Positions 3,613 to 60,426 of a stretch of 64,000 bases of DNA are shown piece by piece; the stretch's first letter is position 1; every line of letters starts with the position of its first letter. Both the position numbers and the translations under genes were made by a program. Below the pieces are notes generated by a model. The model saw only the letters and a program-made list of their open reading frames with translations. It did not search any database and was not told the origin of the DNA. Source of the DNA: Sphingomonas sp. (lineage in GTDB: Bacteria > Pseudomonadota > Alphaproteobacteria > Sphingomonadales > Sphingomonadaceae); the NCBI RefSeq assembly GCF_017304615.1, contig NZ_JAFKLZ010000001.1, positions 1,450,570 through 1,514,569 on the forward strand, read 5' to 3'.

Positions 3613-4643
3613 TTGCGCCCGTGCCCCAGATACCGGTCGAAGAACCGTGCGATCAGGGAATAGGCTTCGGTCGATTCCGGCATGTCGGGCCAGACGAAGA
3701 AGGCGTGCGGCAAGCCGTCGAACAGGTACAGCTCTGAGGGCACTCCGGCCGCCCCCAGCCGCCGATGCGCCAACGTCAGTGCGCTGACCGCGAAATCACG
3801 TCCGCCCGCCAGCAGCAAGGTCGGCGGCATCGCGCGCACTTCTGCATCCGACAACAGAGGATAGGCGGCGGCGTCGGTCACCGGGATACTCGTCATATAG
3901 GGCGTCGGCAGCGTCGCCGGCAACGCGGGCACGGGCAATGCCGCTCCGCCGGTGATCGGACCCGCGAGATAGGGACTGTCCCCCGAATAAGACGCGCCGG
4001 TGCCGCAAAACGTGCCGATCGCGCCGGGCTTGGGCAGCTTGAGGCGGCGGATCCACGCGGTCGCCTGGGCGGTGATGACGCCGCCGGCAGAGCAGCCGTA
4101 GATGCCGATATTGGCGGCCGGATATCGCTTGAGCAAAGCGCGATAGACGGCGGCGACGTCCTCCGACGCGGCAGGATATTTGAACTCGGGCGTCAGCCGA
4201 TAATCGACCGTCACCACCCGGACGCGCATCGTCGCCGCGATCGGGATCGCCTCGACCAGCGCGCCGCTGCCCGAGCCCCACATGAAGGCGCCGCCATGCA
4301 CGTTGATGAGCACGCGGCCCGCATTGCGCGGCGCGATACCCGCCGCCGGCTCGACGCTGTCGACCATCACGCCGCCGATCGTCTCGCGCCGCTCGCGGGT
4401 CGTGAAGTTCCGCCGCATCTCCGCCAGTCGGTCGTCATTATACTTTTGGTAGAAGGCACGTTGCTTGGCCAGATCGCCCTTGATCGCGTCCGGAGCGGTC
4501 GCCGCCCGCATGCGCGCCAGGACGTCCAGCGCTTGCGGGCTGAGCTGGTTGGAAGGGGGCAGCGTAAAAGATGGCACCACCGTCTGCGCCCCGAGCGGCG
4601 CGGCAGCGAAGGCAGCCAACAGAATCGTCAGGCGCAATTTCAT
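3609..4643 (-). CDS. secreted esterase/lipase, hormone-sensitive-lipase (alpha/beta-hydrolase fold-3) type
   Basis: Signal peptide MKLRLTILLAAFAAAPLGAQ. HGGAF oxyanion motif and GCSAGG nucleophile elbow. Confidence 0.8.
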   Translation of the reverse strand: MKLRLTILLAAFAAAPLGAQTVVPSFTLPPSNQLSPQALDVLARMRAATAPDAIKGDLAKQRAFYQKYNDDRLAEMRRNFTTRERRETIGGVMVDSVEPAAGIAPRNAGRVLINVHGGAFMWGSGSGALVEAIPIAATMRVRVVTVDYRLTPEFKYPAASEDVAAVYRALLKRYPAANIGIYGCSAGGVITAQATAWIRRLKLPKPGAIGTFCGTGASYSGDSPYLAGPITGGAALPVPALPATLPTPYMTSIPVTDAAAYPLLSDAEVRAMPPTLLLAGGRDFAVSALTLAHRRLGAAGVPSELYLFDGLPHAFFVWPDMPESTEAYSLIARFFDRYLGHGRK

Positions 4644-48943: not shown

Positions 48944-49016
48944 GTGCTCCGGCGAAGGCCAAAGCGCGGGAAATCGAAGACCATTGCTGCCAACGCTCCG
49001 GCCTTCGCCGGAGCAC
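48944..49016. repeat. REP-like nested-palindrome element, copy 1 (left inner arm degenerate)
   Basis: GTGCTCCGGCGAAGGCC...GGCCTTCGCCGGAGCAC form 17-bp perfect outer inverted repeats. It shares GCCAACGCTCCGGCCTTC.CCGGAGC with copy 2. Confidence 0.85.
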
Positions 49017-49039
49017 GGCCACGCGTCCAACCATCGGCG

Positions 49040-52301: not shown

Positions 52302-52331
52302 AGTGATGGCTTGCGCCCTTCCCATTTCTCC

Positions 52332-52403
52332 GTGCTCCGGCGAAGGCCGGAGCGTTGGAGAGGCAAGACCGGGTCGCCAACGCTCCGGCCTTCTCCGGAG
52401 CGC
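52332..52403. repeat. REP-like nested-palindrome element, copy 2 (intact)
   Basis: 27-nt arms match 25/27 as inverted repeats around an 18-nt loop. Each arm is itself a hairpin: GCTCCGG-N6-CCGGAGC at 52334-52353 and 52382-52401. Confidence 0.9.
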
Positions 52404-53131: not shown

Positions 53132-53395
53132 ATGGCGGAGGTTCAATTGTCGACGGTGACCGTAAGAGAATTGAATGCCAACATTTCCAAGGCGATCGCT
53201 CGTGTCGAGGCCGGGGAGACATTGGAAATCATGAAAAATGGCCGGGTCGTCGCTGAGATGCGCCCCCATATGCGCGAACAAAGCGAAGCTTGGCGGCGAG
53301 CGCACAAGGACTCGGCTACGTTTCTCCGTCGGGGAATCAATTTGGGCATAGGTCGCGTCAAAGCCGCCGACAAATACGACGATGCCGAGATATGA
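53132..53395 (+). CDS. type II antitoxin (Phd/YefM-like N-terminus; VapB partner)
   Basis: 87 aa with TVTVRELNANISKAIARVEAGETLEIMKNGRVVA. ATGA overlap with the PIN toxin. Confidence 0.8.
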   Translation: MAEVQLSTVTVRELNANISKAIARVEAGETLEIMKNGRVVAEMRPHMREQSEAWRRAHKDSATFLRRGINLGIGRVKAADKYDDAEI

Positions 53396-53841
53396 GATTC
53401 ACCGTCGATTCCAATGTTTTGGTATATGCGCTGGATGCGGGCACGCCGGACAAACATGTAGTCGCGGTCGATATAATGATCCGCGCTTCGATGCTCGACA
53501 TGGTGCTGACGGCCCAGGCGCTTGCCGAATTTCTCGCAGTCATCCGGCGCAAATATTCGGAGCACTTTGCGGCCGCCCTCGATCAAGCGCGCCGCTGGAC
53601 CGTGCTGTTTCCGCCAATCGCGACGACACACGATCATGTGGTGGCCGGGGGAGACTTCGCGATCCGGCACAAGCTCCAGTTTTGGGATAGCGTCATTTGG
53701 CAAGCGGCGGCTTCCAAACAAGCCGTCTATTTTTTGTCAGAAGACCTGCAGGACGGACTGTCGATCAACGGCATGACGGTGCTGAATCCGTTCAATGACG
53801 ATAACGCTTCTCTGCTTGGCGAAGTATTGCAAGAAGACTAA
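53392..53841 (+). CDS. vapC: PIN-domain toxin VapC
   Basis: MRFTVDSNVLVYAL (first acidic residue). Later conserved acidic residues lie in LAEF and FWDSVIW contexts. 149 aa. Confidence 0.8.
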   Translation: MRFTVDSNVLVYALDAGTPDKHVVAVDIMIRASMLDMVLTAQALAEFLAVIRRKYSEHFAAALDQARRWTVLFPPIATTHDHVVAGGDFAIRHKLQFWDSVIWQAAASKQAVYFLSEDLQDGLSINGMTVLNPFNDDNASLLGEVLQED

Positions 53842-54578
53842 ACCTTCGCCCGGAATGGCGAAAAATCTGTGCCGTCATCGAACACATCGACGCCCTCGGT
53901 TCGCTTCAGCCCGCCCACCACCAGATATGTCACCGGCGTCAGGAGCACTTCCCACGCCACCTTCAGCGCCCATTGCGTGAACAGCAACTTGATCACCAGC
54001 GCGTGGGTGAACCCCTCCGCGCTCCAGAACGCCAGCGGATAGAAGATCAGGCTGTCGACGCCCTCCCCCGCGATGGTCGATCCGATCGTGCGCATCCACA
54101 AATGCTTGCCGGCGCTCCAGATCTTCATCTTCGCCAGCACGAACGAATTGACGAACTCGCCCGCCCAGAACGCGCAGCAACTGGCGAACACGATGCGCGG
54201 CACCTGGCCGAAGATCGTCTCATATGCCTTCTGGTTGGTCCAATCCGGCGCGGGCGGCAGCGCTACGACGACCCAGCTCATCAGCGCCATGAACAGAACC
54301 GCGCCGAACCCCGCCCAGATCACGCGCCGCGCCCGCGCGTATCCATAAACCTCGGTCAGAACGTCGCCGATCACATAGCTGATCGGGAAGAACAGGATGC
54401 CCGCCCCGAACGGCCAGTATCCGTACCCCGGCAACCAAACTTGCGCGACCTTCCCCGCGCCGATCACGTTCGACAGCAACAGGATCGCGACGAACGCCGC
54501 CATCACGAAGTCGTAGTAGCGGAACTCGCGCACCGTATTCGCGGTCACCGCGCGCAATCTGTGATCCCCCTCGGTCAT
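53838..54578 (-). CDS. yhhQ: queuosine-precursor transporter (YhhQ/DUF165 family)
   Basis: FPISYVIGDVLTEVYGY and RTIGSTIAGEGVDSLIFYPLAF are typical of DUF165. Confidence 0.85.
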   Translation of the reverse strand: MTEGDHRLRAVTANTVREFRYYDFVMAAFVAILLLSNVIGAGKVAQVWLPGYGYWPFGAGILFFPISYVIGDVLTEVYGYARARRVIWAGFGAVLFMALMSWVVVALPPAPDWTNQKAYETIFGQVPRIVFASCCAFWAGEFVNSFVLAKMKIWSAGKHLWMRTIGSTIAGEGVDSLIFYPLAFWSAEGFTHALVIKLLFTQWALKVAWEVLLTPVTYLVVGGLKRTEGVDVFDDGTDFSPFRAKV

Positions 54579-54636: not shown

Positions 54637-54713
54637 GCGCCCGTAGTTCAACTGGATAGAGCACGAGCCTTCTAAGCTTGGAGTTGCAGGTTCGAGTCCT
54701 GCCGGGCGCGCCA
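54637..54713 (+). tRNA. tRNA-Arg (anticodon TCT)
   Basis: GCGCCCGTAGTTCAACTGGATAGAGCACGAGCCTTCTAAGCTTGGAGTTGCAGGTTCGAGTCCTGCCGGGCGCGCCA. Anticodon loop CUUCUAA; encoded CCA. Confidence 0.92.
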
Positions 54714-54719
54714 ATCACC
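54712..54719. repeat. left 8-bp direct repeat (target-site duplication) CAATCACC
   Basis: Identical to 60359-60366. Overlaps the last 2 nt of the tRNA-Arg CCA. Confidence 0.8.
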
Positions 54720-54742
54720 CGGTATTATGGCGCAATTGCACC
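54720..54742 (+). repeat. left terminal inverted repeat (IRL)
   Basis: cggtattatggcgcaattgcacc versus the reverse complement of 60336-60358, cggtattatggcgcaaacgcacc. Confidence 0.85.
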
Positions 54743-54802
54743 GGACTCCAAACCTTTGAATCTGCGTTTCTTTCTGGTCAAACCGACCGAAAGGGACATC
54801 AC

Positions 54803-55282
54803 ATGGGCATTAGCAACGGTCGCGCTCATCTGGAGCGCAGGATCAGCACCTACCTCTCCGAACTCAACGAAAAACGCCGGCTCGCGAAGGGTGCGACCGA
54901 GGCTGCTGCCGACCTGCCGAGTCTACAAACTCGCATCACTCGGCTGGAAGAACTCATCCACGCGATCGAGACGCTACTTCGTGAAGACGACCCGTCGTGG
55001 AACTGTTCTCGCGTCAAGCCGAAGAAGAAGCACGCATTTCAGTCTCCTTTCCCGCTCGGCGAGGCCGGACCGATGGCGCTTGATGTGCTGCGTGAAGCGA
55101 CCGAGCCGATGACCTGTCGCGACATTGTTAGGACGATGCTCGCGAACATCGGTGTCGCCGATTATGAGCGAGACCTGTTGGACAAATGCACCAACTCGCT
55201 CGCTGCCTATCTCACGAAACACAAGGGTGACCTGATCGAATCGAATGGCGCTTGGCCGCAGAAATGGTGGGTGATTCGTTGA
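54803..55282 (+). CDS. hypothetical protein (coiled-coil N-terminus, possible winged-helix C-terminus), cargo
   Basis: 159 aa. ATG preceded by AAAGGGA. No family recognised. Confidence 0.5.
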   Translation: MGISNGRAHLERRISTYLSELNEKRRLAKGATEAAADLPSLQTRITRLEELIHAIETLLREDDPSWNCSRVKPKKKHAFQSPFPLGEAGPMALDVLREATEPMTCRDIVRTMLANIGVADYERDLLDKCTNSLAAYLTKHKGDLIESNGAWPQKWWVIR

Positions 55283-55305
55283 ATCGAGTTTGGAGCCGAA
55301 AAACT

Positions 55306-55372
55306 ATCTGAGAAAAGACGCGAGTTAGTTCGCTAAATTGTTGGACGGTCACCAATACCAATCTGAGAAAAG
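55306..55372 (+). repeat. 12-bp direct repeat ATCTGAGAAAAG x2 upstream of the transposase
   Basis: Exact copies at 55306-55317 and 55361-55372. Confidence 0.8.
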
Positions 55373-55527
55373 GAGTTGTTGACCGACCCTAAAAATCTGC
55401 ATTTTTCCTCTGCTGCACTAAGGCAACGGAGGCTAAGTCGCAGCATTTTCTTCTCTCGAAACAGGCGCGTGAGCTGAGCGTAAAGGGCATCACGCGCCTG
55501 TCCGACGAAGAGGCATTCTCGAAATAT

Positions 55528-56403
55528 GTGGCGCTGCGCTTCGTCCACAACGGCGGCAAGCCGTTCTGCGAACGTTGCAACTCTCAAGATCTTTATTTCA
55601 TCTCCACGCGGCGCAAATGGAAGTGCGCCAACAAAGGCTGTCAGCGCCATTTCTCGCCAACGACCGATACGCCCTTCGCGAGCCGTAAGCTCAGCTATCG
55701 CGACATCCTCATCGCAATCGCTCTTTTCGCAAAGGAGCCAAAAGGTCTGCCGGCCATTCGGCTGAGTCATCAGCTTGAGGTGGGTTACAAAACGGCGTTC
55801 GTTCTTCTGCATAAGATTCGGGAGCAAGTTGGCATCGAACAGCATCGGCACAAGTTGCGTGGCATTGTCGAAATCGATGGTGGCTATAACGGCGGCTACG
55901 TGCGGCCGTTCAACAATCAGGGCGACCGCATCGATAGGCGCGCCACGCGCTACTCTGAGAAGCGAAAATGCGTCTGCATCATGCGCGAGCGTGGCGGTCG
56001 AAGCAGGGCATTCATTTGCAGCGAGACAGAGGCGGCACGACTTGCACCGGAGGTCATTGAGCCCGGTAGCATTATCGTTTCGGACTACCACCCGGCCTAC
56101 AACCGGTTACGTTCCCAATATCACGTTCTCAGGGTCAATCACGACAAGCAGTTCGCAGACGGGAACGCCTCGACTAACTGGGCGGAGTCGTACTTCGCTA
56201 GACTAGATCGCGCAGAGAAGGGGATCTTCCACCGCTTCGCTGGCGAATATTTCAGCGCCTACGTCAACGAGATTTCGTGGCGCGAGGACACTCGACGACA
56301 GAGCGATTTGCAGAAGTTCGACGCGCTGGCGCATTTGATGACGCGCGGCGGCGTATCACGGCGGTGGAAGGGGTATTGGCAACGACGGAAAGCTGCCGCG
56401 TGA
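55528..56403 (+). CDS. IS1595-family transposase (Zn-ribbon + ISXO2-like DDE domain)
   Basis: FCERCNSQDLYFISTRRKWKCANKGCQRHFSPTTDTPFASRKLSYRDILIAI (CxxC...CxxC ribbon), then EIDGGYNGG and later acidic residues. Homology-like sequence (LSDEEAFSKYVALRF) continues upstream of the GTG start with no start codon. Confidence 0.8.
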   Translation: MALRFVHNGGKPFCERCNSQDLYFISTRRKWKCANKGCQRHFSPTTDTPFASRKLSYRDILIAIALFAKEPKGLPAIRLSHQLEVGYKTAFVLLHKIREQVGIEQHRHKLRGIVEIDGGYNGGYVRPFNNQGDRIDRRATRYSEKRKCVCIMRERGGRSRAFICSETEAARLAPEVIEPGSIIVSDYHPAYNRLRSQYHVLRVNHDKQFADGNASTNWAESYFARLDRAEKGIFHRFAGEYFSAYVNEISWREDTRRQSDLQKFDALAHLMTRGGVSRRWKGYWQRRKAAA

Positions 56404-56606
56404 TGAGCACCTTTCGTTTCCACCTGATCGGCAGCGCCCAACCAGTCGAGCTAGATGTCGTCGCATCCACCATGGCCGAACTGGCCGGGTTGGTATCGCG
56501 GCAACGTTTTATCGAAGGTCGAATGACACAGCCTGACAGCGACGGCGTTTTAAGCGGGATGCTGATCGCCACGTCCCGGATACAGTGCGTGGTCGAAGTC
56601 AGTTAG
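56403..56606 (+). CDS. 67-aa hypothetical, start overlaps the transposase stop by 1 nt
   Basis: TGATG junction. MSTFRFHLIGSAQPVELDVVASTMAELAGLVSRQRF... Confidence 0.4.
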   Translation: MSTFRFHLIGSAQPVELDVVASTMAELAGLVSRQRFIEGRMTQPDSDGVLSGMLIATSRIQCVVEVS

Positions 56607-56988
56607 CGGCATCGTCCCGCATCACGAGGCCGCTATCAGTGTCGACCTCGTATTTTGAAAAGTTGACCTTACCGTTCGTCTGGCCGCGAGAACAAATGAC
56701 CTGATAGTGATGGCCCGACACGCGCGAGACGCTAACGGTCTCCCAACACCCGCTATCCTTGGTCGAGATGATCTCGCGAAACCCGTTGCCCGAGCTATCA
56801 AGGTCGTGCGCCTTTTGAAGGCCGGGATCGCCAGCCAAGAATTGCGCGTCTTTAATGTTGATCGGTTGAGCGGCTTCCGATTGATCGTCGCTTTTGCCTG
56901 AGCCGCCAAACATACAGCTACCGATCCCCAGCAGCATGAGTAGACCCAACATGGCGCTGCCTGCGCCGCCCTGCGCTCGATTGCTCAC
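56599..56988 (-). CDS. putative lipoprotein, cargo
   Basis: LLMLLGIGSC lipobox-like motif after a short N-terminus. 129 aa. The start is either GTG 56988 or ATG 56952. Confidence 0.55.
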   Translation of the reverse strand: MSNRAQGGAGSAMLGLLMLLGIGSCMFGGSGKSDDQSEAAQPINIKDAQFLAGDPGLQKAHDLDSSGNGFREIISTKDSGCWETVSVSRVSGHHYQVICSRGQTNGKVNFSKYEVDTDSGLVMRDDAAN

Positions 56989-57598
56989 GATGTGATCCCG
57001 CGTTCGCCCGGCTGGTGCCGGGACGGTTAGTCACGCGCGAACACGGGTAAGCACGCCCCGCTTATTCGGCAGAGCCTGTTTTATTGAGCGGGCCGCCCGA
57101 CATGGCGGACCCGTGTTCAGTGCGTGATGCACACCCCGCTCAGGTGACTAAGCCGTTGCGGGGCTCGCTAATGTTACAGCGGCTTCCAGCGCGTTAGCAA
57201 GCTCATTGCACCGGCTAGCTTTAACCTTATCTCAATCTAAGAGCTTGCAAGAATCAGTTTAAGATGCGCAGGAAGCTCCACATTTTAGGAACAATCCCTC
57301 ACATTCGGGGTTGATAAGCTGCCTTTTGTATGTTACAAAGGTAGCGCTTTTGAGTAGATAGATGCCGGTTAACCCCGGCGTCGGTCTCCATGAGCCGGAT
57401 TTGTCTACGTGCCTTTTGTGTTTAGGGATGAACCTCAAATTAGTTGAGCATTCCTGAACTAAAATGCCTGGATGGGAAGACTGGAGAGCGCCGGAACTTT
57501 TGTTTCCGTGAGGTAATTCGGTCCACCGCCGCAGCGAAGGGAGAAAGCGTTAGGCAACGAGATTGGGCGGAGTGGCAGAGATGCCCTCCGCCTTTCTG

Positions 57599-58441
57599 CT
57601 AATAATACATATCACTCGCAAACATGTTCAGATGGGTATCACGCTTCTCGTCGTTGCTCACGCCATGGCAATTCCAGAACTGTCCGCTGATCGACGTTCG
57701 ATCAGCCTCGGTTTCTGATACGTTGTAATGTCGGTCCGCCTCAATACGAAAGCCGAACCGAAAACGAGCAGCTAGGTAGCAGTATGGCTTATGATGGCCT
57801 CCTGTCTCCGGTTTTGCGTGGCGTTCATTTCCATACACAAAGAACTTTTTATCGTCGTCAACTGCGTAGCGGGTGCCATAAGAGCTTTGACGCCTAGGAC
57901 GGACTCGCTTCCTTAATGAAAGCAACTGTTTGTCAACTAAATTGTTAAAGTCTGGTCGTAACGTTTCTGCCGAGCACAGCCTCTTGAGTTCGCTCAAATC
58001 ATTACCTGCGAAGTTTCTGAATGGAAGACTCAACAGTTTAACGTCGCTTGCTTGTTCAAATTTCCATGCCAAATGGCTAAAGGCTCGCAATCCTGTTGCT
58101 ATGCTTTTGTGAAAAAAGTTAAGGGGACTCCCGCCCAGCAACCCAAAGTCAATTGGCACGGGAAACATTATATTAGTAACATTTTCAGTTAAATGCTGCC
58201 ATCTCAAATCAATAAGAAGAATGCATTTCTCTGCATCTAAAGTCTCTTCAATGAGGAAGTTTTCCAATCCCTCAATTGAGGGACCATCATGTGGTATATA
58301 GCTGGACGCCGCGAGGGAAACGCGATGCGAGGCATAATAGCCTCTATTGAGCACTTCTTTGGGCGCAACATTATCCTTTAACCTACCGAAGAAACTCGAT
58401 AGATCACGGTCAGGCGAAATCAAACAGACTCGTAGATTCAT
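57599..58441 (-). CDS. 280-aa protein of unknown family (downstream gene of the low-GC cassette)
   Basis: ATGA overlap with the upstream gene. No TM segment and no signal peptide. The C-terminus has FRFGFRIEADRHYNV (238-241 HYNV) and DTHLNMF (270-273 HLNM). I recognise no family. Confidence 0.7.
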   Translation of the reverse strand: MNLRVCLISPDRDLSSFFGRLKDNVAPKEVLNRGYYASHRVSLAASSYIPHDGPSIEGLENFLIEETLDAEKCILLIDLRWQHLTENVTNIMFPVPIDFGLLGGSPLNFFHKSIATGLRAFSHLAWKFEQASDVKLLSLPFRNFAGNDLSELKRLCSAETLRPDFNNLVDKQLLSLRKRVRPRRQSSYGTRYAVDDDKKFFVYGNERHAKPETGGHHKPYCYLAARFRFGFRIEADRHYNVSETEADRTSISGQFWNCHGVSNDEKRDTHLNMFASDMYY

Positions 58442-58866
58442 CGGCGCGTGAGAGCAGCAAGCACCTTTGTCGGAATAATGACTTGTTCGACTAAGTCATC
58501 GGGCAAGCTAGCTATAGCCCTAAAAAATTGTATTAGGACAACTTCATTAGACGACTTAGTAATACGTGGCAAACGCCTTTCGCTATCCGAATGGGCATCG
58601 TCGGCGGTATAAGCAAATTCAGCTTCCGGAGGGATTACCCCAATCTTAGGTTTTTGTATTGGATGCTCCACAACTTTAACCACACCCTGCTCTTCGAGCC
58701 GCTTGGCAAATGTTTTTAGGCGCTCTTCTCCAATTACATCTTTGTAATTTTTTCCGTCTTTGCGTAAATCAGTGGCGATTGAGGTTAGCAAATAAGGGGC
58801 CTCATAGCTTTCCCACTGCTCCTTTGTCTTTGCCGAAATGTAGGAGACAAGCTCATCTTCGGTCAC
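58438..58866 (-). CDS. 142-aa protein of unknown family (upstream gene of the low-GC cassette)
   Basis: GTG 58866 sits 8 nt downstream of AAGGAG. Soluble, with a charged N-terminal roughly 75 aa that may be HTH-like (my inference only). Confidence 0.7.
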   Translation of the reverse strand: MTEDELVSYISAKTKEQWESYEAPYLLTSIATDLRKDGKNYKDVIGEERLKTFAKRLEEQGVVKVVEHPIQKPKIGVIPPEAEFAYTADDAHSDSERRLPRITKSSNEVVLIQFFRAIASLPDDLVEQVIIPTKVLAALTRR

Positions 58867-58974
58867 GTATGCTCTCCTTCAGGCACAGCCTTTGGCCCGC
58901 ATGGCATCGACTATAAGGCACAGACGATAACGAACTAACTCAAGCAGGGCTAGGTCTGCCATATGGTGAGCCCG

Positions 58975-58987
58975 CTTGGTGCGTTTG
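58975..58987 (+). repeat. IRR-like 13-mer CTTGGTGCGTTTG, copy 1
   Basis: Same orientation as the inner part of the right terminal repeat (CGTGGTGCGTTTG, 60333-60345). Confidence 0.7.
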
Positions 58988-59043
58988 TCGCTAATTCCGG
59001 ATCAATCGGGCCTCGGCTATGAGGCACTAAGAGGAGACCGCGA

Positions 59044-59220
59044 ATGGATTATCAGATAGGCGATACGGTGATACTCAAATCCGGCGGTGAGATCATGACC
59101 GTCGAAAGCGTGGAAGGTGGGAGCATCGATTGCGTATGGTTTAACGGCAAGAAGGTCGAGCGGTCATCGTTTGACCCAAGAACGCTAAAGCCATTTGAGA
59201 ACACCTTTGGCGGCTTCTAG
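59044..59220 (+). CDS. DUF2158 (YodC-like) small protein, 58 aa
   Basis: Not in the track because it is under 60 aa. MDYQIGDTVILKSGGEIMTVESVEGGSIDCVWFNGKKVERSSFDPRTLKPF matches the remembered DUF2158 pattern (GD.V.LKSGGP.MTV...C.WF). RBS GGAG. Confidence 0.7.
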   Translation: MDYQIGDTVILKSGGEIMTVESVEGGSIDCVWFNGKKVERSSFDPRTLKPFENTFGGF

Positions 59221-59233
59221 CGACCGCGCACCA

Positions 59234-59246
59234 CTTGGTGCGTTTG
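59234..59246 (+). repeat. IRR-like 13-mer CTTGGTGCGTTTG, copy 2
   Basis: Exact repeat of 58975-58987. The two copies bracket the DUF2158 gene. Confidence 0.7.
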
Positions 59247-59381
59247 CTGGAATAGACCGTCTGGCCCATTTGCGCATTTGCACTACTACACTGAGAATGT
59301 AGCTTGCTGGTGGACGACACCGGAGCTTTTGACCGTTTCGGAATTAAGTAACGGTCCGGCGGCGGTCGAGGATCGCTATGG

Positions 59382-59891
59382 TTAGAAGTTCTGCCAAAGG
59401 GGTCGCTCCATCACCTCACCAGCCAACATTTTTCGCACGACCTCCAATTGCTGGCCCAAAAACTCTACCAGCATATCTCGCTCATCCACAGTCGCTTCTC
59501 GGTCGCCCACGGTTTCAGCCATATTTTCAAAGACGAGGCGAACGGCAAGCAAAACAGCGTTCAGAGCAACAAGGTGCCGCGCCAGCGATCGGCTGCCTTG
59601 GTCATCTAATTCATAAATTGGAAAACGAGCAATCTCATCAATAACGCCGCCAACCGCTAACGCTCCGCCACGGAGGGGCAGTGAGAGAGGAAGAAAGTTA
59701 GGCGTTGTGTGGTAGCTCTCGATGACTTCGTAACCGTGAGACAGCAACCTAGCAGCCGCCTTCTTTAGCTGGCGCTTGTGATACCAAATCGGAATGAACG
59801 CAGTTAGATAGGTTACAACAAGAGCCAGCATCGCGCCGGCGAACTGAGCCCATCCGGCGAGCTTATCATGGGCCTCTAACCACGAAACCAT
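59382..59891 (-). CDS. hypothetical protein with one N-terminal TM helix, cargo
   Basis: ATG preceded by AGGAG. WAQFAGAMLALVVTYLTAFIPIWY, then a soluble helical domain. Confidence 0.55.
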   Translation of the reverse strand: MVSWLEAHDKLAGWAQFAGAMLALVVTYLTAFIPIWYHKRQLKKAAARLLSHGYEVIESYHTTPNFLPLSLPLRGGALAVGGVIDEIARFPIYELDDQGSRSLARHLVALNAVLLAVRLVFENMAETVGDREATVDERDMLVEFLGQQLEVVRKMLAGEVMERPLWQNF

Positions 59892-59954
59892 TCCGCCGCT
59901 CCTGTAAGATAGAGAATTTAGACTGCGATCCGCTGCAAATTGAAAGGTTATCGA

Positions 59955-60311
59955 ATGAAGCGCGACATGGACAAGGTGCGCGGCGTGATGTTGGCACTGG
60001 AAGCAAAGACCGGTCCCTTCGTCCTAACTTACGACACGCCATCTATGGGCGGAACTGACGACGGAGCCGAGACCGTCGAGTATATTGTGTTGCTTCATTC
60101 GGGCGGGTTCTTGGAAAGCACCCAGCGCAACGTTTATCGCCTATCTTGGGCAGGACACGAGTTTCTCGACAGCGTGCGCGATCCCGAGATTTGGCGGCAG
60201 ACGAAAGACGGAGCGGCCAAGATCGGCTCGTGGTCGATCACTTTGCTCGGAGAATTGGCGAAGGGCTTCCTCCGCGCGAAGGCAGCGTCCTTGGGACTAC
60301 CGATCGGCTGA
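59955..60311 (+). CDS. DUF2513 family protein (winged-helix-like), cargo
   Basis: MKRDMDKVRGVMLALEAK...LSWAGHEFLDSVRDPEIW matches my memory of DUF2513. Confidence 0.65.
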   Translation: MKRDMDKVRGVMLALEAKTGPFVLTYDTPSMGGTDDGAETVEYIVLLHSGGFLESTQRNVYRLSWAGHEFLDSVRDPEIWRQTKDGAAKIGSWSITLLGELAKGFLRAKAASLGLPIG

Positions 60312-60335
60312 CTGGCTCAACCTGATCAAGTTCGT

Positions 60336-60358
60336 GGTGCGTTTGCGCCATAATACCG
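60336..60358 (-). repeat. right terminal inverted repeat (IRR)
   Basis: See IRL. Followed by the 8-bp direct repeat CAATCACC at 60359-60366. Confidence 0.85.
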
Positions 60359-60426
60359 CAATCACCCAGCAATCGAGTTTGCGGCGAAATCCGCAAGGCG
60401 CTGCATGTCGCGTTCCCGGGCTGTCG

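Follow-up and report, generated by a model that had tools for sequence, protein, structure and literature searches.

Siguier, Gagnevin and Chandler are reported to have recognized in 2009 (as cited in PMC11891212 and PMC3129680), within the IS1595 family of insertion sequences (ISs), a class of “transporter ISs” (tIS) that includes the subgroup of ISNha5. Elements of that subgroup are 3.4-7.9 kb long, with 8-bp duplications, ends reading CGGnnTT and passenger genes, and the element described below may belong here. Three papers treat transporter ISs of the IS1595 family with passenger genes, ISNha5 among them, as already known (PMC11891212, PMC3129680, PMC5704250). Here, the element in question spans positions 54720-60358 (5,639 bp) of a 64-kb window, this being the whole stretch of Sphingomonas sp. 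chromosome that was analyzed, and it sits at the 3' end of a gene for tRNA-Arg(TCT). Like the tIS, it has inverted repeats, passengers and an 8-bp duplication, together with a single DDE transposase of the IS1595 type that carries a Zn ribbon at its N-terminus. Just inside its left end lies an open reading frame (ORF), orf159, called F1 below. Elements of the IS1595 family have been treated so far as simple ISs, some with passengers; strict target sites such as tRNA CCA ends, comM or mnmE, or a universal accessory gene that covaries with the target, are unreported for the family in the searchable papers, ISfinder and TnPedia lying outside that search. The reading favored here, which taken as a whole is probable, is that of a cargo transposon that homes to tRNA ends with F1 as its selector.

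Selectors are familiar from the Tn7-like transposons, where TnsD or TniQ leads the element to attTn7 at glmS, to comM in the case of Tn6022/AbaR, or, in some CRISPR-associated transposons, to tRNA genes. The likeness is functional only. In each case a separate, swappable DNA-binding protein would send a DDE transposase to a chromosomal site that is conserved and safe, at a fixed distance, and the classes of site are common to both: tRNA 3' ends, the 3' ends of housekeeping genes, and comM, the classic site of the AbaR/Tn6022 islands, which are themselves unrelated to the elements described here. The Tn7-like transposons, however, use TnsA, TnsB, TnsC and TniQ, duplicate 5 bp and insert in a fixed orientation, whereas the transposase here is of another family, 8 bp are duplicated, insertion takes either orientation and the putative selector has only ~160 residues. 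Searches of the element's ORFs with Pfam and NCBIfam gave no homologue of TnsA, TnsB, TnsC or TniQ.

Two other kinds of element invite comparison. Integrase-type islands and casposons also insert at tRNA 3' ends and preserve the gene, but they do so with tyrosine or serine recombinases or with Cas1, and what they duplicate is tRNA sequence of 14 to ~50 nt (PMC4046053). In Firmicutes, MTnSag1 and tISCpe8 are mobilizable transposons of the IS1595 family, and a circular intermediate of MTnSag1 has been shown (PMC5704250). These share with the Sphingomonas element an IS1595 transposase, inverted repeats of ~25 bp, an 8-bp duplication and cargo. They differ in a cargo of lincosamide resistance plus oriT and mobilization functions, site specificity is not reported for them, and they lack a gene like F1 (PMC5704250).

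The bounds of the element are well marked. Its terminal inverted repeats (CGGTATTATGGCGCAA) match at 16 of 16 positions at the tips and at 21 of 23 over 23 nt, and directly outside both ends stand identical copies of the 8-bp sequence CAATCACC. An original prediction, made from the letters alone, had claimed these repeats, and had claimed that removing the element with one direct repeat restores the site ...GCGCGCCAATCACCCAGCAATCG; all of this was reproduced. A perfect 16-nt inverted repeat that adjoins a perfect 8-bp direct repeat is estimated to arise by chance ~1e-6 times per 64 kb, and the 16-mer of the ends occurs nowhere else within the window, with up to three mismatches permitted. That the outer duplication is perfect shows that all 5.6 kb travelled together in the last move. 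The transposase was also correctly predicted to be of the IS1595 type, since profiles of both Pfam and NCBIfam match: the ORF at 55528-56403 covers the full profile of DDE_Tnp_IS1595 (PF12762) at 2.8e-34, and NF033547 is matched with 131 bits against a cut-off of 75. The feature is, with near certainty, an IS1595-family cargo transposon, that is, a transporter IS in which one DDE transposase and additional genes lie inside inverted repeats.

Relatives of the element were collected by scanning one genome per species with a transposase alignment, which gave 80 alphaproteobacterial loci, to which look-ups of close homologues added more. Complete elements were delimited via inverted repeats flanked by 8-bp direct repeats. 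There are 59 of these, the one in the window included, all of them alphaproteobacterial and 2.6-7.2 kb long; the 8-bp duplication is perfect in 58. Their common ends read CGG[T/C]ATTA[T/G]G..GCAA.C.CACCAA, and the ends of the 38 elements from which the consensus CGGTATTATGTAGCAAACGCACCAAG was made do not vary at positions 1, 2, 6-8, 13 and 15. As to whether such ends bound homologous elements elsewhere, a point on which the original prediction had staked itself, homologous ends with 8-bp duplications bound 58 elements in other genomes, and F1, the transposase and cargo lie between such ends in every case. Close relatives were few in the scan of metagenomes. Plasmid annotations bear on the ISNha5 grouping only to the extent of a generic label, “IS1595 family transposase.”

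What sets the clade of the window's element apart is where its members are found. The window and ten further loci lie at genes for eight different tRNA species: Arg-TCT (the window, L022 and L131), Pro-TGG (L016), Pro-CGG (L130, in Erythrobacter sp. KY5), Trp (L014), Gln-CTG (L018 and L019), Gln-TTG (L117), Gly-GCC (L119/L120) and Ser-CGA (L017). At 11 of 11 loci, the duplication starts at C75 and so shares with the tRNA exactly its two final nucleotides, the CA of CCA. Insertion at the CCA end had been predicted for the window, where ARAGORN and Rfam together place the end of the tRNA inside the left duplication; since the tRNA gene ends at 54713, the second C of its CCA is the first base of the duplication. 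With a staggered cut of 8 bp that begins at C75, the duplication rebuilds the 3' end of the tRNA, and thus the gene survives. Orientation is free, the left end adjoining the tRNA at six loci and the right end at five. A random insertion would hit a C75-type position with a chance of ~1e-5 each time, an estimate that takes ~50 tRNA genes in ~4 Mb. Homing to tRNA ends with nucleotide precision is therefore, as far as comparison of sequences can tell, very probably a property of the lineage.

Not every member is so placed. Beside the elements at L116, L114, L094, L015 and L115, neither Rfam nor ARAGORN finds an RNA, and the sites of L116 and L015 still read ...GC(A/G)C before the CA, followed by a T-rich trailer. 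Nor does F1 likeness within the clade follow the identity of the tRNA, the three elements at Arg-TCT sharing only 37-39% F1 identity. Thus, what is recognized is probably a generic feature of the 3' end of tRNA genes. F1 would read such a common feature, the DNA of the T-arm and acceptor being the likeliest candidate.

That F1 is what chooses the target is suggested by the sister lineages, whose targets are likewise recurrent and used in both orientations (the target genes were confirmed by Pfam on reconstructed ORFs). In comM/yifB, 14 elements are inserted between the codons for ...FLDELP and EF..., and 12 before EALEVS. Two more lie at the last codons of mnmE (FCIGK), and pairs or triplets of elements occupy two genes for GT2 glycosyltransferases as well as two further sites. 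The insertions in comM/yifB are spread over many alphaproteobacterial genera, at two fixed codon positions; the loci are L020, L021, L038, L044-L046, L054, L056, L059, L062, L063, L066, L071 and L075, and further L078, L079, L081, L083, L086, L089-L091, L098, L023, L025 and L032. The mnmE, GT2 and other-site groups are L028 with L074, L053 with L082, L076 with L080, L043 with L060, and L051 with L084 and L088, each with an F1 subtype of its own.

Co-variation was examined in the 37 elements with recurrent targets other than tRNA genes. The nearest neighbor by F1 has the same target in 37 of 37, the nearest neighbor by transposase in only 20 of 37. In separating same from different targets at the protein level, F1 has an area under the curve (AUC) of 0.935 and the transposase one of 0.583, where permutations reached maxima of 0.66 and 0.62. 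The sharpest case sets L063, in comM, against L051, L084 and L088, at a different site: the transposases are 94-97% identical, the F1 proteins ~34%. F1 might, of course, have tracked the target simply through its nearness to an end. At the level of DNA k-mers, however, the AUC is 0.71 for the F1 gene against 0.49 for the left-end region and 0.58 for the stretch from F1 to the right end, with 0.48 for the transposase gene and 0.57 for cargo; that only F1 tracks the target clearly among five regions argues against a simple linkage artefact. Guidance by RNA was also considered and rejected. The longest exact matches from the interior of an element to its own target are 9.6 nt, against 9.4 nt to the targets of other elements, which gives no sign of a guide.

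From this co-variation, the balance leans toward F1 as an exchangeable target selector, variants of which would send elements to tRNA CCA ends, to either of two comM codons, to glycosyltransferase genes, or to the place where mnmE ends; the variant in the window's element would be one that reads a feature common to the 3' ends of all tRNA genes. One may go further, and with slight preference see here a minimal two-protein system for site-specific insertion, in which a swappable F1 of ~160 residues steers an otherwise ordinary DDE transposase of one subunit and repeated homing drives growth of the cargo by tandem fusion.

A competing view, which is unlikely, is that the transposase itself prefers GC-rich sequence, then CCA, then a T-rich trailer, that this preference sets the bias toward tRNA genes, and that F1 is only a regulator of transposase expression, such as a repressor, or an end-binding cofactor. 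All 11 duplications do start with CA on the tRNA strand, and most of them are T-rich (for example, CATTTTCT and CAATTTCT), and the non-tRNA sites look similar (GGGGCAC followed by CACTTTTC at L116, GTGCGC followed by CATTTCTC at L015). Insertion in both orientations contrasts with Tn7 and its dedicated selector, and the location of F1 upstream of the transposase gene in this clade is one typical of a regulator. The sister lineages, however, pair nearly identical transposases with different targets and dissimilar F1 proteins, and F1 predicts the target in all 37 elements. Further, the point of insertion in comM is fixed in the codon frame even where the 8 bp duplicated there differ (for example, GAATTCCA, GAATACAG and GAGTTCGG), which argues for a separate reader of neighboring sequence.

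F1, for its part, is universal, being present in 59 of 59 complete elements by hmmsearch and in 35 of 35 by BLAST clustering, and it nearly always lies 60-90 bp inside one end, reading inward. That end is the left one, upstream of the transposase gene, in the window's clade, and the right one in other clades. In a set of 1.84 billion clusters, the family is represented by 271 proteins, all of which stand alone, with lengths of 62-385 residues and mostly of 120-200; an identical orf159 is annotated in a Sphingomonas metagenome-assembled genome. An AlphaFold (AF2) model gives F1 an N-terminal helix of 58 residues and a small helical domain at residues 88-139, and nothing significant was returned by Foldseek with this model. 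A profile of 58 members, compared with the sequences in the PDB, finds only coiled coils and, weakly, winged helices of the MarR type. Pfam matches HARE-HTH in four of the 58, at best with 1.5e-5 (0.033 for the F1 of the window). A dimeric coiled-coil DNA binder would fit the role of selector; that of a regulator is equally compatible. The ISNha5 group has passengers labeled “transcriptional regulator,” which a winged-helix F1 may match, as ends reading CGGTATT may match its CGGnnTT.

The transposase has an intact catalytic core, D117, D186 and E220 being invariant in an alignment of 30 homologues. The gene had been put at 0.88 kb. The type stood, but the ORF of 291 residues was probably truncated at its 5' end by the way in which ORFs were defined, the full form starting at ACG, as a complete Zn ribbon needs the 34 residues upstream. 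Read from ACG 55426, Zn_ribbon_IS1595 (PF12760) is complete, with all four Cys present and 29.3 bits against a cut-off of 25.4; such a ribbon is expected throughout the IS1595 family except in the group of IS1016. Read from GTG 55528, the match to the profile is partial and only 23 bits, and the frame upstream of that GTG is open and conserved over 34 codons (TEAKSQHFLLSKQARELSVKGITRLSDEEAFSKY).

The homologous position was compared in 12 members of the tRNA-targeting clade. The start there is ATG in L016, L130 and L131, GTG in L116, TTG in L018 and L119, ACG in the element of the window and in L014, L114, L115 and L117, and AAG in L022, whose transposase is truncated. The four other elements with ACG have intact ORFs, and both of those that are completely delimited have intact duplications. 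Because ACG recurs in elements that are otherwise intact, it suggests a deliberately weak start rather than decay. Such a start would hold the level of transposase low, and the protein that is made would bind the ~25-bp ends and cut at the CGG tips. Ahead of the start, a block of DNA (window 55390-55430), ...AATCTGCATTCTTTCTCCGCTGCAAC...(A/G/T)(T/C)GGAGG, is kept across the clade from L014 to L131, whichever codon starts the gene, and may serve as promoter or operator.

A competing view of this one copy is that it has lost its ATG and is now an immobile, single-copy relic, plain chromosome. This is improbable, even though ACG stands at the ancestral start position, with the next start, GTG 55528, truncating the Zn ribbon, and even though the exact transposase occurs at a single locus in all samples and the same filled site is seen in several metagenomes. 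Against it, the tips of the inverted repeats are identical and the duplication perfect, the frame of 325 codons is open and conserved throughout, including the residues upstream of the GTG, and ACG, given its recurrence in the clade, looks like a tolerated weak start rather than decay. In addition, two contigs of metagenome 3300023194 end at most 4 nt from the left junction, which is compatible with polymorphism or repetition there. A relative has an identical transposase protein at two different sites, L119 and L123, and the group therefore is mobile or was so until recently.

The locus varies between strains. In one that is 99.35% identical (ERZ22680345; L005 1-62), a different sequence, TTCCTGTCGATTTGC..., comes straight after the CCA of the tRNA-Arg (window 54713), and the contig of the opposite side (end of L011) stops 7 nt past the duplication (window 60373). 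Among contigs with the exact flanking proteins, no clean empty site was seen; the sites were filled, broken at the junction, or followed after CCA by different sequence.

Several points weigh against the reading of a homing transposon with F1 as selector. Neither a second copy of this exact element nor a clean empty site was found, and current activity is unproven. A canonical start for the transposase is missing, and this copy may be dead or its activity attenuated. No fewer than three clade members (L116, L114 and L094) are off any recognizable tRNA, and a further one (L015) is ambiguous, lying at a contig end. Co-variation of F1 and target is, of course, no proof of function, and in the tRNA clade itself, where F1 is monophyletic and so is the transposase, the two are not separable, so that the case for a selector is extrapolated there from the sister lineages. 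The model of F1 is only moderately confident (pLDDT, the predicted local distance difference test, 73), and the structural search with it gave no significant match. Placement in the ISNha5 subgroup, finally, is tentative.

The composition of the region is a mosaic, with a G+C content of 0.531 in the element, 0.455 in a cassette at 57599-58866 and 0.64 in both flanks; the hand counts given earlier at four places (33, 25, 22 and 44 of 60) were exact. This mosaic, and the fact that tRNA 3' ends are classic attachment sites for islands, might call to mind an integrase-type island with an IS somewhere inside it, or a smaller IS beside unrelated genes, but both are, as far as sequence analysis goes, ruled out for practical purposes, as no integrase or recombinase is found among the element's ORFs (Pfam, NCBIfam), the direct repeat is 8 bp with only 2 nt of tRNA rather than a copy of the tRNA's 3' segment, the transposase gene has no inverted repeats of its own around it, and the ends surround F1, transposase and cargo together throughout the family.

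If true, the reading of F1 as a selector would make this group a far simpler analogue of targeted transposition of the Tn7 type, retargeted by the swap of one small gene. It would offer a tractable model for the steering of a DDE transposase by an accessory DNA-binding protein, and a compact scaffold for site-specific insertion of DNA. It would also explain part of the variation in gene content beside tRNA genes and in comM in Alphaproteobacteria. For annotation, the stretch that adjoins the tRNA is to be taken as one mobile unit. Its features are collected in Table 1.

Table 1. Features of the element and its insertion site (positions in the window)
Feature	Position	Strand	Remarks
tRNA-Arg(TCT), insertion target, gene intact	54637-54713	+	ARAGORN; Rfam RF00005, 63.3 bits
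Left 8-bp target-site duplication, CAATCACC	54712-54719	.	Starts with C75-A76 of the tRNA
Left terminal inverted repeat, CGGTATTATGGCGCAATTGCACC	54720-54742	+	Matches family end consensus
orf159 (F1), 159 aa	54803-55282	+	Coiled coil and winged-helix-like domain; just inside left end
IS1595-family DDE transposase	55426-56403	+	325 aa from ACG 55426; 291 aa from first canonical start, GTG 55528
67-aa ORF	56403-56606	+	Start overlaps transposase stop (TGATG); constant in tRNA-targeting clade
Cargo orf129 (117 aa from later start)	56599-56988	-	Lipoprotein-like N-terminus, motif ...GIGSC
Cargo orf280	57599-58441	-	Second gene of low-G+C two-gene cassette
Cargo orf142	58438-58866	-	First gene of cassette; 4-nt overlap with orf280
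Internal right-end relic 1, CGGAATTAGCGA-CAAACGCACCAAG on minus strand	58975-58999	-	Orientation as functional right end
Cargo DUF2158 protein, 58 aa	59044-59220	+	Pfam 8.9e-11; phrog_3261
Internal right-end relic 2, CGGTCTATTCCAGCAAACGCACCAAG	59234-59259	-	Keeps CGG; orientation as functional right end
Cargo orf169, membrane-like	59382-59891	-	Hydrophobic N-terminal segment
Cargo DUF2513 protein, 123 aa	59940-60311	+	Pfam 6.7e-15; phrog_585
Right terminal inverted repeat	60336-60358	-	Repeat search
Right 8-bp target-site duplication, CAATCACC	60359-60366	.	Adjoins right inverted repeat; identical to left copy

Besides the transposase, the list of ORFs and the gene calls on identical metagenome contigs give eight ORFs. 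The original prediction had taken everything other than the transposase to be cargo of unknown function. Comparison of copies, which it had proposed as a way to see which cargo is constant, divides the eight: F1 is universal, and the clade as a whole retains the 67-aa ORF that is coupled to the transposase gene, so that these two are not cargo, while the remaining six vary. By BLASTP, these six have no homologue in 34 other elements, and on that comparison they are true variable cargo. The 67-aa ORF has no match in Pfam or PHROGs.

Searches for cargo function with Pfam, NCBIfam and PHROGs gave DUF2158 and DUF2513 only, and orf169 matched no family of Pfam or NCBIfam. The PADLOC models of anti-phage defense matched none of the eight ORFs at E <= 0.1. 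The gene for the DUF2158 protein is also cargo of the Erythrobacter sp. KY5 element (L130). The cassette of orf142 and orf280 travels as a pair, recurring on an otherwise unrelated island with integrase, MobA and TraD (L133 5576-6840). The orf280 protein has a confident AF2 model (pLDDT 92) with conserved His and Cys residues in a C-terminal beta-rich domain; compared with the PDB, the model has no solved structural relative (best E = 0.05), and none of 36 homologues has a Pfam domain.

The two relic right ends bracket the DUF2158 gene. In relic 2, the inner 14 nt are a perfect inner half with the family's top score for an end. Internal sites that look like ends are rare in other elements, with seven observed overall against two expected by chance; two of the seven are the relics here. 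Relic 2 has a twin, identical at 22 of 26 positions, inside the L130 element (positions 3960-3985), and the two represent a distinct variant of the end, CGGTCTnTnCCAGCAA..., common to the elements of the window and of L130, both of which have DUF2158. The sharing of this variant suggests either that such ends form a sub-lineage apart from the rest or that a small module is mobile.

Elements that home to the same sites land side by side, and thus tandem fusion would explain a stepwise growth at the right end. Here, the cargo of the right side would have grown by fusion with family members piled up at the same kind of site. Tandem copies would fuse and their inner parts be lost, leaving two decayed right ends inside.

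Two RNA-like signals lie in cargo. In the window, a stretch of 600 bp free of ORFs holds a sub-threshold match to Rfam sRNA-Xcc1 (57009-57101, minus strand; E = 0.075, with 28.7 bits where the gathering score is 53), which is probably due to chance. In the cargo of a relative, a skipping-rope RNA motif (L116 7774-7883) scores 42.4 bits, above its gathering score.

Outside the element, a gene for Vut_1, a queuosine-precursor transporter, flanks the tRNA-Arg(TCT) gene, and beyond it (window 53143-53850) lie genes for a PIN-domain toxin and a small antitoxin similar to Phd/YefM. Further away, a perfect inverted repeat of 29 nt (window 48990-49018 and 52330-52358), extending to ~71 nt at 80%, occupies two intergenic spacers 3.3 kb apart; it is possibly an element resembling repetitive extragenic palindromes (REP) or miniature inverted-repeat transposable elements (MITE).

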